DNA from: Patescibacteria group bacterium
Lineage (GTDB): Bacteria; Patescibacteriota; Patescibacteriia; JAXHNJ01
DNA: 64,000 bases
Reading direction: 5' to 3'
Assembly (NCBI GenBank): GCA_034520665.1
Contig: JAXHNJ010000002.1
Span: 544,660 to 608,659 of the forward strand
Below the pieces are notes generated by a model that was given only the letters and a program-made list of their open reading frames with translations, ran no database searches and was not told where the DNA came from. Position numbers and translations under genes: made by a program. Below are positions 57,547 to 64,000 of this stretch, piece after piece (the stretch's first letter is position 1; each line of letters starts with the position of its first letter).

Positions 57547-57903
57547 CTATTTATATTTTTTTTGACAACTGATCGCATAAAAAAGAATACCAATTATAAC
57601 AAAAGGAAATCCAGAAATTAAAACCGCAAAAAGATGATTATGTCCGGCCATAAAATAAGCAAAAATAGAATGAATTATACCACCACTAATAAGAATAATA
57701 CTACCAAGCTTTTCTTTTCGCCAAGCAACCATAAAACCAATAGTGGTGATAATTACTAATAAGTTAATAATTAATGATTCGCCGGTGAAACTTTCAAAAT
57801 CAGAGAAAGCATAGCCTAGAGATATTATCAACCAGAAAAGAACTATAATTAAGCCAAGAGTACGGGCTAGCCAACGAATTATTTTAATACTTTTATTATT
57901 CAT
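57547..57903 (-). CDS. Small hypothetical membrane protein (4 TM)
   Basis: 118-aa hydrophobic ORF. Confidence 0.55.
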   Translation of the reverse strand: MNNKSIKIIRWLARTLGLIIVLFWLIISLGYAFSDFESFTGESLIINLLVIITTIGFMVAWRKEKLGSIILISGGIIHSIFAYFMAGHNHLFAVLISGFPFVIIGILFYAISCQKKYK

Positions 57904-58048
57904 ATATTTAGTATAGCAGAAATAAATTTAAAATGGTAAATAATAGTATAAATCTTATTCAGTACCGAGATTATTTTTGATAAAAAATAATAATATAATA
58001 AAAAATAACTTAATTATTAATTAGGTTGCTTTTTTATTTATTAAATAT

Positions 58049-59332
58049 TTATTCGTATCTCAAAGCGTCAATCGGATCGAGCCGGGAAGCGCGAATAGCC
58101 GGAGCCACGCCAAAGAAAATACCGACCAAAGCAGTAAAAGCATAGGCCAAAAGGACTGATTGTAAATTAATCTCTGGGGATAGACCGAATTGGACCTCCA
58201 TAATGCCAGCGCCCAAGAAAGCCAGACCGACTCCAATAGTACCGCCCAAAAAAGTTAGAAACATGGCTTCGACCAAGAATTGGACTAGAATATCACTGCC
58301 GGAAGCACCAATCGCTTTACGTAGTCCTATTTCCCGGGTTCTTTCGGTCACTGAAACCAACATAATATTCATGACGCCAATACCGCCAACCAAAAGCGAA
58401 ATAGCGGCAATACCCCCCAGCATGGCAGTAATCACTCCCAAGACCTGGTCAAACATATCCAAAATTTCTTCCTGAGTGGTAATCGAAAAATCTTCCACTC
58501 CTTCATGAGCTTGCAGTAAGGACTGGCGGATATCTTCTTTGATCGTGTCAACATTGTCCACGTTTTTTACGATCACTACTATCTGGGTAATATTAATGGA
58601 AGCGCTAATTTTTTCCACGGCGGTCATCGGTATAAAAATCATATTAGTCATGTTAGAGTTTCCAAAAAGATCTTCTGATTCAACTGACTCTTGAGCGCCG
58701 ATTATTTCAAAGCTCTCTTTGCCAATGTAAATAGTTTGGCCAATAATATCTTGGACTGATTTGTCTGGGAAAAGATTTTCGGTGGCTCCTGATTGGAGAG
58801 TAGCCACTGATGAGGAGTCATCATATTCTTGCTGGTTAAACATTCGGCCAGCGTGTTCGCCGGTGGCCATCTCTGAATTTTCAAAGGCCTTTTCCAAATC
58901 AGCGGTAGTACCAACAGCAATAACCCGATCTCTGGATTGTTCAATTAAGTTTTGTTCAGAACCGGTGTTAGCTGAGTATTGATTGGCCGGCACTGTTGGT
59001 GGAGTACTGGAAATTGGCAAAGGCACCACTACCATCGGTACCGTGTATTGAATACCTTCAACCTTTTTTATAACTTCTAAGTCTTCTTCAGAAAAAGTGC
59101 CGGAGCTTGACAAGGGCCCGCCGCCAATAGAGCCAGGCATTACCATAAGAAGATTTGAACCTAGGTCTTCTATTTGTCCGGTGACTTCGCTTTTGACTCC
59201 CTGACCGATGCCGATTAGCAAAACAATGGAAAAAACACCAATAATGACCCCGAGCATAGTCAAAAATGAACGGGTCTTTTTGGCCCAAATAGCCTTGATA
59301 GCCAATTTAATATTTTCTAAAAATTTATACAT
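58049..59332 (-). CDS. ABC transporter permease, MacB/FtsX family
   Basis: N-terminal TM, large periplasmic MacB_PCD-like domain and a C-terminal FtsX 3-TM domain. Confidence 0.88.
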   Translation of the reverse strand: MYKFLENIKLAIKAIWAKKTRSFLTMLGVIIGVFSIVLLIGIGQGVKSEVTGQIEDLGSNLLMVMPGSIGGGPLSSSGTFSEEDLEVIKKVEGIQYTVPMVVVPLPISSTPPTVPANQYSANTGSEQNLIEQSRDRVIAVGTTADLEKAFENSEMATGEHAGRMFNQQEYDDSSSVATLQSGATENLFPDKSVQDIIGQTIYIGKESFEIIGAQESVESEDLFGNSNMTNMIFIPMTAVEKISASINITQIVVIVKNVDNVDTIKEDIRQSLLQAHEGVEDFSITTQEEILDMFDQVLGVITAMLGGIAAISLLVGGIGVMNIMLVSVTERTREIGLRKAIGASGSDILVQFLVEAMFLTFLGGTIGVGLAFLGAGIMEVQFGLSPEINLQSVLLAYAFTALVGIFFGVAPAIRASRLDPIDALRYE

Positions 59333-59339
59333 ATATTTA

Positions 59340-60008
59340 TTAGACTATCTGTCCGTCTTTTATTTTAATTATTTTTTGAGCTTGACTAGCAATTTCTTTA
59401 TCATGAGTAACAATTAAAATGGTAGTGCCCTGCTGGTTTAGTTCTTCTAGAATATTCATTATTTGCTGGCCGCTTTTTGAGTCCAAATTACCGGTGGGCT
59501 CATCAGCTAAAATAATAGCCGGATCATTAACTAGAGCGCGGGCAATAGCCACTCGCTGCAGTTCCCCGCCGGATAGCATGTTTGGCTTATGCCTAACCTT
59601 GTCGCCCAAACCGACTTTTTCCATCATTTTTTTAGCCTTAGCTCTTCTTTCCTGGGGTCTGATGCCACGATAAACCAAAGGCAGTTCTACGTTGCTAACA
59701 GCTGGCATGCGGGGAAGGATATTAAAGTTTTGAAAAATAAAACCGATTTTATTACGCCGTATTTTTACTAATTGAGCCTTGCCCAAATTTTCTATTTCCT
59801 TTTCTTCAAATTTATAAACTCCCGAAGTAGGCTTGTCCAGACAGCCGATAATATTCATCAAAGTGGATTTACCAGAACCGGAAACACCCATCACCGCCAG
59901 CATTTCGCCTTTGGCCACTTTTAAAGAAACCCCGTTTAAAGCGGCAAATTGATTGGATTTTCTTTCAAAATATAATTTTTTGATGTTTTCTAGTTCTATT
60001 AAAGACAT
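59340..60008 (-). CDS. ABC transporter ATP-binding protein (MacB/LolD-like)
   Basis: Walker [10 protein letters not shown], signature [15 protein letters not shown] and Walker B ILADEPT. Confidence 0.93.
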
Positions 60009-60274
60009 TTTTTTTATCTATTATTTGAATATTATAACACAAGATTACCGATAATAACAAATTAATAGTTCTATCTAGATTAGCTAAAAAACATCTCTTT
60101 CTTTTGAGATGTTTTTAATAATAATTTATAGATTAATTTAAATTTTTCTAAATCCTTATTTGATTTTATAATTATTATTTTTTTATTATTGTATTTTTCG
60201 AATAATTTTAATACATTTGTTTTTCTTGTTTTCGGATAATCCCAAAGAATCCATTTAATCATTTGAAAATCTAT

Positions 60275-60395
60275 TTTTTTCTTTTTTTAGCCTTAGCCTC
60301 CAGCATCTTTCTTTTAATCTCCAGCTTTTTTTGTTTTGTGGGATTTAGATTTTTGGCGTCGGCCAACAGGGTGGGCTCAGTTCTTATTTAATTGT
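60275..60395. repeat. 115-bp direct repeat, copy 1
   Basis: TTTTTTCTTTTTTTAGCCTTAGCCTCCAGCATCTTTCTTTTAATCTCCAGC...GGCGTCGGCCAACAGGGTGGGCTC. It is near-identical to 61722-61850. Confidence 0.75.
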
Positions 60396-60430: not shown

Positions 60431-61153
60431 TTACCAGTTTTTACATTGTCTTTTTAACTCTTTTGTAGCATAAGAATCATCAGGGATTAAATCACATATA
60501 GAACGGTCATTATTGTAAATGGCAACTCTACTATAACATCTTAATACTTCAAAAGTTCTATCAATTTTGTCACAAACACTTATGTCATGTCTTTTCCCGG
60601 CTATACCTGTGTAGCATTCATTTTGAGATGTTTTATTACTTATTGATTGAGATTCTTTAGTTATAAGATTACAAATAGATAAGTCATCTTTTCTTATTGC
60701 AATTCTAATTAAACATTGATTTTTATCCCAATCTACCGTATACGTTGAACAGGAATCAACGTTTTCAGAAGATTCAATAAAAAAACTTCCTAATATAATT
60801 GCAGCGATTATTATTGTAAATGTCCCCACACTTATTTTTACTTTTCTTTTTTTCCCTTCATTATTTAATCTAGCAATGTATCCAATAAAAAAAACCAGCG
60901 CAATATTAATTAAATAGGGTATTATTACCAATAATAAATTTGATATGGGAGAATGTGTTGTGCCAGTAAAAAAAGGAAAAGCATTTGGAATTAAATAAAT
61001 AAATAAAATTCCAGGCATAAGTAATAATATGATGATGCCTGCAAAATAAAAAATTAACCAATTATTTGATATTTCTAATAAGACATATGATAATATGGCT
61101 AAAGCAGTGAAAATTGTTATAAAAATTAACTCAATTTTTCTACCTTTATTCAT
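60431..61153 (-). CDS. Membrane protein with 5 N-terminal TM helices and a C-terminal triple Cys-repeat domain
   Basis: Three repeats of the form C-x8-10-D-(L/I)-S-(I/V)-C-(N/D)-(L/K)-I: NQCLIRIAIRKDDLSICNLI, NECYTGIAGKRHDISVCDKI, LRCYSRVAIYNNDRSICDLI. Confidence 0.6.
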   Translation of the reverse strand: MNKGRKIELIFITIFTALAILSYVLLEISNNWLIFYFAGIIILLLMPGILFIYLIPNAFPFFTGTTHSPISNLLLVIIPYLINIALVFFIGYIARLNNEGKKRKVKISVGTFTIIIAAIILGSFFIESSENVDSCSTYTVDWDKNQCLIRIAIRKDDLSICNLITKESQSISNKTSQNECYTGIAGKRHDISVCDKIDRTFEVLRCYSRVAIYNNDRSICDLIPDDSYATKELKRQCKNW

Positions 61154-61330: not shown

Positions 61331-61721
61331 AGCTGTTTGTATTAATACTCAAATTACTGTTTATGTTTATATTTGAATTTACGTTTTTATTATTTAAAAT
61401 ATTAACGGTATTTTTATTATTACTTACATTTTTTACGCCCCATCGATTAAAATGCTAATAGTGTAGTAATAAAAATTATGATTGCAGATATAATTACAAT
61501 AGAAATAGATGCCACTATTTTTTTCTTGGTTTTAATAAAAGGGTTTATCTCAAAATCAGAAATTACTGGCTGGTGATAATAATTCTTAATTTTATAAAAA
61601 TAATAGGGAAAAACTTTGATTTTTTTAATTCAAAATATAAACCTGGTAAAAAAGGATGAGCAAATATTGGTTCCTTTTTAACTGTATTTTTTATACCAAA
61701 TATTTTCTGAAGATATTATTT

Positions 61722-61850
61722 TTTTCTTTTTTTAGCCTTAGCCTCCAGCATCTTTCTTTTAATCTCCAGCCTTTTTTTTGTTTTGTGAGATTTAGATTTT
61801 TGGCGTCGGCCAACAGGGTGGGCTCTTTTTCCAGGCATATATTTTATTAA
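61722..61850. repeat. 115-bp direct repeat, copy 2
   Basis: Same sequence as 60275-60395 except for A7 versus A8 homopolymer length and a few substitutions. Confidence 0.75.
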
Positions 61851-62300: not shown

Positions 62301-62498
62301 ATGCAAGGTACTATCAAGAAATTAACAGATAAGAATTTTGGTTTTATTACCGCGGAAGATCAGGACAAAGATCTTTTCTTCCACGCTAACGAGCTTGAAG
62401 GAGTAGAATTTGATCAACTTCAAGAAGGTGACAATGTCACTTTTGAAGTATCAGATACTCCTAAAGGTCCGGCCGCTGTTAAGGTTAATAAAGCCTAA
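62301..62498 (+). CDS. cspA: Cold-shock protein (CspA family)
   Basis: MQGTIKKLTDKNFGFITAEDQDKDLFFH shows the RNP1/RNP2 motifs of the cold-shock domain. Confidence 0.9.
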   Translation: MQGTIKKLTDKNFGFITAEDQDKDLFFHANELEGVEFDQLQEGDNVTFEVSDTPKGPAAVKVNKA

Positions 62499-62524: not shown

Positions 62525-62552
62525 TACCCGCCCAAACAGGCGGGTATTTATA
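62525..62552 (+). terminator. Rho-independent terminator after csp
   Basis: ACCCGCC-caaaca-GGCGGGT followed by ATTTAT. Confidence 0.6.
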
Positions 62553-62610: not shown

Positions 62611-63261
62611 TTAATTTTTAATATCCAGTTCTTTTATTTCCAAAATTTTCAAAGAATATCTAGCCATATCGCGTATGTCTTTTCCTCGGTCAATAATCAC
62701 TCCTTTAATAAACAAAGGACTAAGAGAGGAATCTCTTTTTATGTATTCTCTAGGGCGAGTTTCAGGACAATCATAAGAAACAATTTTTTCAATATCGCTA
62801 TTAGGATAATGAACATCTAAGCCTTGAGTGTAGGGATGGACATTTTCTTCTATCATTTTTTTATTTAATAATACATAATAAATTTTAAAACCAGGAGCTT
62901 CAACTATATTGCCGGTGGTTTGTATTTCTTTACCGACATAATTTTCTTCTTCTCCTATAATATCTTCTAAAGCCACATAATTAGAAGTTTTTTCTATACA
63001 CTGACCTTCAGCACAAATACAATTTCTTTTGGGTAAGAAAAAACATTTTACATCATCACATTCTTTTGAATCTTTATGTAAGCAACCGCAACAAGTATTA
63101 ATACAATCTGAATCATTAGAACATTTAAGATCTTGAAAATCTGCATTATTTAAAAAAACATATCCTAAAATAAAAATTACTAAAATAACGGAAATAACGA
63201 CTGCAATTGTTCTCTTTTTCATAAAAACAATAATAAAAAGAGATTTAAATAACTTTCCCAC
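62611..63261 (-). CDS. Cys-rich membrane-anchored/secreted protein, paralog A
   Basis: N-terminal TM then LKCSNDSDCINTCCGCLHKDSKECD, a Cys-rich module shared with the adjacent paralog. Confidence 0.65.
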   Translation of the reverse strand: MGKLFKSLFIIVFMKKRTIAVVISVILVIFILGYVFLNNADFQDLKCSNDSDCINTCCGCLHKDSKECDDVKCFFLPKRNCICAEGQCIEKTSNYVALEDIIGEEENYVGKEIQTTGNIVEAPGFKIYYVLLNKKMIEENVHPYTQGLDVHYPNSDIEKIVSYDCPETRPREYIKRDSSLSPLFIKGVIIDRGKDIRDMARYSLKILEIKELDIKN

Positions 63262-63356
63262 ATAAATTTTTAAAAACTAAAATCTATTTCAATCAACATA
63301 AAAATAGAACAAACACAAAAGAGGATGTGTAGAAAAGGTTTGATGACTTTTTACTT

Positions 63357-63845
63357 TCAATAAACAGTATTCGGAATATACTGGCACTTATTATTTATAC
63401 ATTCTACATATTCAATACTAATTCCAACAAAACAATCAGGAGCACATATTGGACAAATTTCATGATATTCTTGTATTTTTTTCTCAATTTCTGTTGGCTC
63501 TAAATCATCTAAAAGAAGTTCAGAATTTTTATTAACAAGCCAATAACAACCAAAAGGACAATCAATTTTAGAAATTATTCTACAATCCTCTTTTACCTCA
63601 CAATAGTTTTCTTTATCTATTAAATCTAAAATTTCTTGTTCTTGTTCTTGACAATTATATTCTTTTTCTTTTATTTCTTCACAAGAACCATTAATACAAA
63701 TACAATTCCTAGTAACTAAAGCATCACATTCTTTATCACATTCTTTTGAATCTTTATGTAAGCAACCACAACAAGTATTAATACAATCTGAATCATTAGA
63801 ACATTTAAGCTCACTTTCTTGATTATAAAAAAACCACGTTTTCAC
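63357..63845 (-). CDS. Cys-rich protein, paralog B. The reading frame stays open upstream to the window edge, so the true N-terminus may lie beyond 64000.
   Basis: It carries the identical LKCSNDSDCINTCCGCLHKDSKECD module plus more CxxC pairs (CPICAPDC, CINNKC). It starts at GTG (63845) in the track. The frame has no stop up to position 64000. Confidence 0.55.
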   Translation of the reverse strand: MKTWFFYNQESELKCSNDSDCINTCCGCLHKDSKECDKECDALVTRNCICINGSCEEIKEKEYNCQEQEQEILDLIDKENYCEVKEDCRIISKIDCPFGCYWLVNKNSELLLDDLEPTEIEKKIQEYHEICPICAPDCFVGISIEYVECINNKCQYIPNTVY

Positions 63846-64000
63846 TAGAGTGTTAAAATCTTGCTGATAATCATTAAATTTCTCTGGCCGGGCGTTTAAC
63901 CATAACCGGTATAATTTTTTATTATAAATGAAATGAATTAGAATATCATTATTATTACTGCTGTCTTTTATTATTTGTTTTAAGGCTCTTTGTCCGTCAA

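Follow-up and report, generated by a model that had tools for sequence, protein, structure and literature searches.

How do two neighbouring genes that encode otherwise unrelated proteins come to share a stretch of nearly identical DNA, and what does this stretch encode? We addressed these questions for a locus in the genome of a Patescibacteria group bacterium (assembly GCA_034520665.1, contig JAXHNJ010000002.1, forward-strand positions 544,660 to 608,659); the window, that is, the whole stretch of DNA that was analysed, is 64,000 nucleotides (nt) long, and all coordinates below refer to it. The two open reading frames (ORFs) in question are neighbours on the minus strand, with 134 nt between them: gene A (62611-63222, identified as an ORF with its translation; 203 amino acids (aa), stop codon at 62611-62613) and gene B, of which the window contains the 3' part (63357-64000). 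Both encode a module with ten cysteines. Patescibacteria, also known as the candidate phyla radiation (CPR), are tiny bacteria, most of them uncultured and many of them epibiotic, whose surface proteins for the most part lack annotation. Taken together, the evidence makes it probable that A and B encode anchored surface proteins that share a disulfide-stapled, membrane-proximal module, the first half of which was homogenised by recent gene conversion.

The near-identical block occupies positions 63055-63132 in gene A (minus strand; codons 32-56, LKCSND...KECD, beginning at the N-terminal module boundary and ending just past the sixth cysteine, C6) and positions 63735-63812 in gene B (minus strand; codons 203-227 of the full-length product, P0003). 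The copies form a 78-nt direct repeat with 2 mismatches and lie 680 nt apart on the same strand. The coding core of 25 codons (63055-63129 versus 63735-63809) is equal at 74 of its 75 nt and is translated in both genes as LKCSNDSDCINTCCGCLHKDSKECD; the sole core difference, at 63088/63768, is synonymous (TGC versus TGT). The identity ends abruptly on both sides: in the codon alignment of A and B, the 7 codons upstream of the block agree at 6 of 21 nt, and the 28 codons downstream at 46 of 84 nt (55%). There is no third copy of the block in the window, and its 41-nt perfect run is absent from the GTDB representative genomes. The near-identity of the two blocks had been noticed in a preceding sequence-only reading of this DNA and stands, with the correction that the first block had been started one base early (63054 is C, and its counterpart 63734 is T).

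Could selection on the protein, combined with AT-rich codon bias, have produced this near-identity without any recombination, or could it be an assembly artefact? Within the module family, no part is more conserved than the block, and the genome has a GC content of 34% and biased codons. However, given the window's own codon usage and identical residues, 12.9 of the 25 codons are expected to be identical, and the probability of at least 24 is 3e-7. In a permutation of the 39 mismatches over the 159 aligned nt of the module, the 41-nt perfect run has P = 5.5e-5. As a control, we compared modules from eight other loci in 44 pairings across a gap-free 54-nt core; the mean nucleotide identity was 62% (maximum 76%), and 52% of the codons were equal at identical residues, whereas over the same core, the A-B pair shows 98% nucleotide identity and shares 17 of 18 codons. 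An in-frame, in-register block of 76 nt that has distinct flanks and is shorter than a read also appears unlike an assembly collapse. We consider both the constraint and the artefact explanations extremely unlikely.

The locus combines near-identity that includes synonymous sites, diverged homologous sequence beyond the block, and the presence of both copies in one genome, as is characteristic of gene conversion. For a comparison of tract and flank, only gene A has an orthologue, P0002 (56% identity), which is the only full-length relative of gene A. Over the 3' half of the module, the pairs A and B, A and P0002, and B and P0002 lie at about the same distance (11, 12 and 10 of 21 residues, respectively), so that this half appears to be old, which fits old paralogy. 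Because the synonymous sites are identical, the edges are sharp, and the rest of the module is homologous but 55% identical, the comparison supports gene conversion, not protein constraint, as the probable origin of the block. Under this scenario, the A and B modules would be old domain-level paralogues with 3' halves 55% identical, and a recent non-reciprocal recombination event (gene conversion) would have overwritten the initial 25 codons in one module with their counterparts from the other. The conversion tract would start where homology starts, at the module boundary, and would end inside the module, past the sixth cysteine.

An alternative scenario is partial duplication or fragment insertion, whereby half of a module was copied into a previously module-less site of the other gene. 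On its left side, the identity begins precisely where the module starts, with similarity upstream being nil (6/21 nt), and no other family member has the domain order of gene B, in which the module comes after a PsbP-like domain. Nevertheless, the 3' half of the gene B module is homologous to the family, with the same spacing from C6 to C10, a score of 62.6 bits for the module, and 55% nucleotide identity to A. Being homologous and in register, this half indicates that a complete module was already present in both genes, and an inserted fragment would have had to land in-frame and in-register beside a resident half-module. We therefore regard fragment insertion as unlikely. The sequence-only reading had offered gene conversion and recent partial duplication as the two possible origins of the block; the synonymous identity and the sharp edges uphold the former, and the homologous, in-register 3' half of the gene B module speaks against the latter.

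As to the direction of gene conversion, A as the donor and B as the recipient might be slightly favoured because the architecture of gene B is atypical of the family. The gene upstream of the gene A orthologue (locus L001, 1-1161, plus strand) encodes a C-terminal tail, WFGVYFSDSKKNNCSTDQDC...KC-x7-C-x-C-x4-C, that is weakly similar to the module region of gene B, which begins WFFYNQESELKCSNDSDC (pairwise E = 0.018), and lacks the CC-x-C cluster. This gene may correspond to gene B in position and contain a looser form of the module, in which case it would bear on the question of the donor.

Gene conversion of the RecA type between paralogous segments is well known in bacteria, with tufA/tufB and the rRNA operons as the textbook cases. 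The block described here resembles the tufA/tufB type of concerted evolution in that a short near-identical tract, synonymous sites included, is embedded in diverged homologous sequence. It differs in that a single small domain in two otherwise unrelated genes is involved, and in that the tract is only about 76 nt long, with one edge at the limit of homology. The tract provides a clean, small case of recombination at the level of a domain, not of a whole gene, in a reduced genome.

Two other interpretations of the repeat were considered and rejected. An embedded RNA or DNA element is not indicated: the block folds no better than shuffled sequences (z = 0.05), and Rfam detects only four tRNAs, which are located elsewhere in the window. 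Nor does the repeat resemble the repeat pair of a diversity-generating retroelement: adenine is found on a different copy at each of the 2 mismatches in 78 nt (63768 A versus 63088 G; 63130 A versus 63810 C), and both copies are in-frame homologous coding segments; no search for a reverse transcriptase was made.

The homology between A and B is limited to the module of about 45 residues. The sequence-only reading had described the two products as paralogous proteins that diverged outside the block. Outside the module, however, they are unrelated (residues 76-203 of A versus residues 246-352 of B: BLASTP E = 13, hhalign E = 0.7), and the PsbP-like domain of gene B is missing in gene A. Whole-gene paralogy is accordingly rejected; what the genes have in common is a domain, not a duplicated ancestor.

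The module occupies positions 62998-63123 in gene A (minus strand; residues 34-75, from the first cysteine, C1, to the tenth, C10) and 63681-63803 in gene B (minus strand; residues 205-245 of P0003), and has the signature C-x5-C-x3-CC-x-C-x7/8-C-x3/4-C-x7-C-x-C-x4-C. We built a profile from three module sequences and ran it against 1.84 billion representative proteins, which yielded 20 proteins at E <= 1e-3. The gene A module scores 66 bits against this profile and that of gene B 62.6 bits (over profile positions 2-46), and each contains all ten cysteines that are invariant in the family. In the alignment of the 20 sequences, the ten cysteines and one glycine are invariant, and Asp9, Thr13 and Leu33 are nearly so. 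All 10 module-bearing clusters that were looked up are singletons that come from metagenome assemblies. When JGI metagenome contigs were scanned, only four loci were confirmed, and pattern scans of the GTDB representative genomes and of IMG/VR gave no confirmed locus; for lack of a confirmed IMG/VR match, we also rejected a viral origin. The family is genuine, though rare. Searches of Pfam, NCBIfam and the PDB gave no significant match to the module; this result includes the heavy_Cys, Squash and Nodulin_late families, so that membership in these was rejected, and no description of the module was found in the literature searched.

The module almost always lies next to a membrane anchor. Of the 21 proteins, 20 possess one hydrophobic segment, located at the N-terminus, and the other protein has a lipobox-like LLSGC; C1 is found about 3-15 residues past the broadly delimited hydrophobic window in all of the proteins except gene B, the only family member in which the module is away from the anchor. 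The domains fused to the module include PsbP-like/PsbP_2, an FKBP_C prolyl isomerase (E = 1e-37), PepSY, the Ig-like Big_14, and TIGR04289 (heavy_Cys). In several members, the module is followed by a PsbP-like domain with the motifs W-x-T-Y...Y-x-F-x-[IF]-K-Y-P ... L-S-T-F-K-F. At one locus (L013, 2717-3394, plus strand), the module protein continues into a low-complexity linker and then an M23-peptidase-like motif, FTGFHTGADFE; Pfam gives no match to this region, so that the assignment is unconfirmed, and the contig ends within the gene. The N-terminal anchor with its preceding positive charges, together with partner domains typical of the cell exterior, fits a module that would be extracytoplasmic.

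Eight of these proteins (P0004, P0005, P0006, P0008, P0012, P0014, P0015 and P0016; loci L004, L008, L011 and L012), otherwise diverged, start with a nearly identical leader, MPF[IL]TQGKTNWKFLLIV. The leader, which is missing from genes A and B, spans the cytoplasmic stub and the start of the anchor and may serve as a signal for sorting or insertion that is specific to a lineage.

No conserved genomic neighbourhood accompanies the module. The contexts of five family members (P0002, P0004, P0005, P0009 and P0011) consist of unrelated housekeeping genes, which led us to reject a conserved operon or partner gene, and none of the other loci examined contains two module genes.

With the 20-sequence alignment, AlphaFold modelled the isolated module confidently, with a mean predicted local distance difference test score (pLDDT) of 86.3 and a predicted template modelling score (pTM) of 0.62. 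In the model, the construct of 49 residues forms two beta-hairpins (residues 10-19 and 37-48); in the full-length model of gene A, the module region has pLDDT values of 74-92. A Foldseek search with the module model matched neither a knottin nor any other fold.

Under the scenario that we propose, one N-terminal helix would fix each of the A and B proteins in the membrane, and the remaining chain would be outside the cell. The two predicted hairpins would form a compact pair, stapled by five disulfides between the ten invariant cysteines and thereby locked into a small, rigid unit. The module would then act as a rigid, protease-resistant, membrane-proximal stalk or scaffold for the domain that follows. 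We infer a generic structural role, probably neither catalytic nor adhesive, because the partner domains are interchangeable while the position next to the anchor is fixed. These results bear on several claims of the sequence-only reading. Cys-dense, disulfide-rich extracellular modules fit the ten invariant cysteines, the anchors and the partner domains, with disulfides being plausible, and structure prediction produced a confident model with two beta-hairpins. By contrast, no evidence of an adhesin was found, and a novel family can be spoken of only in the sense that the module is without a match among Pfam and NCBIfam models and PDB folds. Confinement of the module to these two genes, which would have counted against such a family, is not observed, given its conservation in about 20 further protein clusters.

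Several observations weigh against the overall reading given at the outset. No orthologue of gene B was found in the databases searched, so that the direction of conversion and the earlier state of the gene B module are unrooted, and a single metagenome assembly is the source of the sequence. A pair of beta-hairpins lined with cysteines is also reminiscent of metal-binding knuckles. Anoxic water, in which many Patescibacteria live, makes extracellular disulfides less assured. Finally, the only grounds for the stalk role are position and domain architecture.

The resemblance to knuckles raises the possibility that the module binds a metal, zinc or an iron-sulfur (Fe-S) cluster, via its Cys-lined hairpins, as in zinc ribbons, and forms no disulfides. 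The two predicted hairpins with cysteines at the turns and the very high density of cysteines are compatible with metal binding, and the hosts are probably anaerobes. However, all evidence puts the module outside the cytoplasm, with partner domains that are extracytoplasmic. Furthermore, ten invariant cysteines with a CC pair and without CxxC knuckles are unlike the known Zn4 or Fe-S motifs: in the direct comparison with zinc ribbons, the two hairpins are predicted, but the CxxC spacing is not present and the context is extracytoplasmic. No metal-binding family in Pfam or NCBIfam was matched. Metal binding in place of disulfides thus seems doubtful.

The module could also be construed as a knottin-like bioactive unit, such as a protease inhibitor, an antimicrobial peptide or a host-directed peptide, displayed on the surface or released. 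The similarity to squash knottins (PF00299; 1f2s chain I) resides in the motifs C-[KE]-x-D-S-D-C-x3-C and C-x-C-x-x-G-x-C and in a C-terminal beta-hairpin; the match to 1f2s_I (E = 3.6) runs through the module motifs CKRDSDC and CICVMGHC, that is, C-K-x-D-S-D-C and C-I-C-x-x-G-x-C. The other matches of this kind were similarly weak (Squash, E = 0.13 in 1 of 20 modules; Nodulin_late, E = 0.34 in 3 of 20), and all are non-significant. Squash knottins are free 30-residue peptides with six cysteines, whereas the module has ten, with about 22 extra residues between the two motifs, and forms part of larger, anchored proteins. Its sequence starts with the counterpart of the squash C2 motif, so that nothing corresponds to the reactive-site loop between C1 and C2, and Foldseek retrieved no knottin. 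In every case, the module is joined to larger domains, and it never occurs as a stand-alone short secreted peptide. A knottin-like activity is, in our judgement, very unlikely.

A further alternative concerns the near-identity and the fold at once. The module might be a new, Patescibacteria-specific fold that serves as a shared docking surface for a component of the cell wall or surface layer (S-layer), a host-cell ligand or a metal, with the first hairpin kept identical by selection because these adjacent surface proteins of different function must both bind the same partner. We give this possibility little credence; if it is true, the concerted evolution of the two modules would reflect a functional requirement and not a neutral accident of recombination.

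One of the closest described counterparts of the module is the eight-cysteine-cluster domain TIGR04289 ('heavy_Cys'), which is found in the CGP-CTERM proteins of Thermococcales and in other proteins. It is likewise about 50 residues long, Cys-dense and secreted or surface-located, opens with C-x-x-D-S-D-C and closes with C-x-C-x4-C. This opening and closing are common to the module, heavy_Cys, the squash knottins and the tail encoded by the upstream gene at L001. In a comparison of one heavy_Cys example with the module profile, hhalign aligned 44 columns end to end, with most cysteines in register (E = 0.0035, probability 9%); the example lacks the central CC-x-C cluster of the module, and the loop spacing differs. 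Neither P0001, the gene A product, nor P0003 matches TIGR04289 at E <= 0.1 (the cut-off of the model is 50 bits), and of the 20 isolated modules, 2 match at E of about 0.8. As a positive control, TIGR04289 recognised the C-terminus of P0005 (residues 242-294) at 59.3 bits. P0005 (locus L004, 978-1868) consists of the anchor, the ten-Cys module, a PsbP-like middle part and the C-terminal TIGR04289 domain; because it carries both, the two types of Cys-rich domains co-exist and are distinguishable. At most, the module appears to be a distant relative of the heavy_Cys domain, not a member.

Rare and uncatalogued, the module is a domain of surface proteins in Patescibacteria and falls into a familiar class, that of small extracytoplasmic domains rich in cysteine. 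Its signature and some 20 carriers offer annotators a new extracytoplasmic marker domain, and the module itself is a small structural target for the study of how Patescibacteria stabilise their surface proteins. Neither the module nor the conversion tract overturns current understanding, and nothing here is mechanistically surprising.

Apart from the module, the two proteins are built differently. The gene A product has the same sequence as P0001, which is annotated as a hypothetical protein (locus tag U5L76_05435) in a metagenome-assembled genome (MAG) of the Patescibacteria group; P0001 and P0003 are encoded on the same 698-kb contig. Its N-terminal transmembrane anchor (63148-63216, minus strand; residues ~3-25) is preceded by the positive charges KKR, is the single N-terminal hydrophobic segment in the hydropathy scan, and is modelled by AlphaFold as a helix (residues 3-25, pLDDT 88-94). 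The C-terminal domain (62614-62985, minus strand; residues 80-203, about 125 aa) is an orphan, with P0002 as its sole other carrier. Searches of Pfam, NCBIfam and the PDB with gene A gave no match, nor did the C-terminal domain alone match anything in Pfam or the PDB; its AlphaFold model has pLDDT <50 and is not reliable.

The frame of gene B is open to the window edge, as the sequence-only reading had stated and the translation confirms, and beyond position 64000, the full-length gene was recovered only as the protein P0003, 352 aa in full, of which the window encodes residues 140-352 (exact match). P0003 is annotated by NCBI as 'PsbP-related protein' and consists of an anchor, a PsbP-like domain, the ten-Cys module and a second Cys-rich tail. 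Residues 12-192 match PsbP_2 (PF18933) marginally, at 28.0 bits versus a cut-off of 27 (E = 2.6e-6), such that the Pfam gathering score is reached, and the match covers nearly the full profile (positions 2-180 of 184). The window contains the C-terminal part of this domain (63840-64000, minus strand; P0003 residues ~140-192), the remainder being outside. Although PsbP_2 thus adjoins the module in gene B, as PsbP-like domains do in other family members, the domain order is reversed compared to these. The C-terminal tail (63360-63668, minus strand; P0003 residues ~250-352) contains ten further cysteines; comparisons with the module profile, with NCBIfam and with the C-terminal domain of gene A gave nothing significant.

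A cold-shock gene (62301-62498, plus strand) converges on gene A, and a consensus scan identified a terminator-like GC-rich hairpin with a T-run (62525-62546, minus strand) 3' of gene A, before the cold-shock gene. Between genes B and A, the same type of scan found no terminator-like site, and for this reason, the two genes may be co-transcribed.

The neighbourhood further downstream contains another repeat. A direct repeat of about 107 nt (60272-60378 and 61717-61825; 93-98% identical, with a 1-2 nt indel) flanks a gene for a 240-aa membrane protein. One copy corresponds to an intact ORF for an extremely basic 40-aa peptide, MPGKRAHPVGRRQKSKSHKTKKRLEIKRKMLEAKAKKRKK (61716-61838, minus strand), which has no match in Pfam or NCBIfam; the other copy, near 60263-60391, lacks a start codon and is frameshifted. 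On sequence grounds, the arrangement resembles a tiny gene that was duplicated, or else the trace left by an insertion or duplication of ~1.4 kb. The flanked membrane-protein gene (60431-61153, minus strand) encodes several N-terminal hydrophobic segments and, in its C-terminal region, three repeats of about 30 residues with a Cys pair in each (for example, QCLIRIAIRKDDLSICNLI, ECYTGIAGKRHDISVCDKI and RCYSRVAIYNNDRSICDLI); these are of a type other than the ten-Cys module and have no significant match in Pfam or NCBIfam. Just downstream (57547-60008, minus strand) lies a MacB-type ABC pair, with the ATPase at 59340-60008 and a MacB_PCD plus FtsX permease at 58049-59332, followed by a DUF7670 protein (57547-57903); none of these genes has an evident link to the Cys-module genes.

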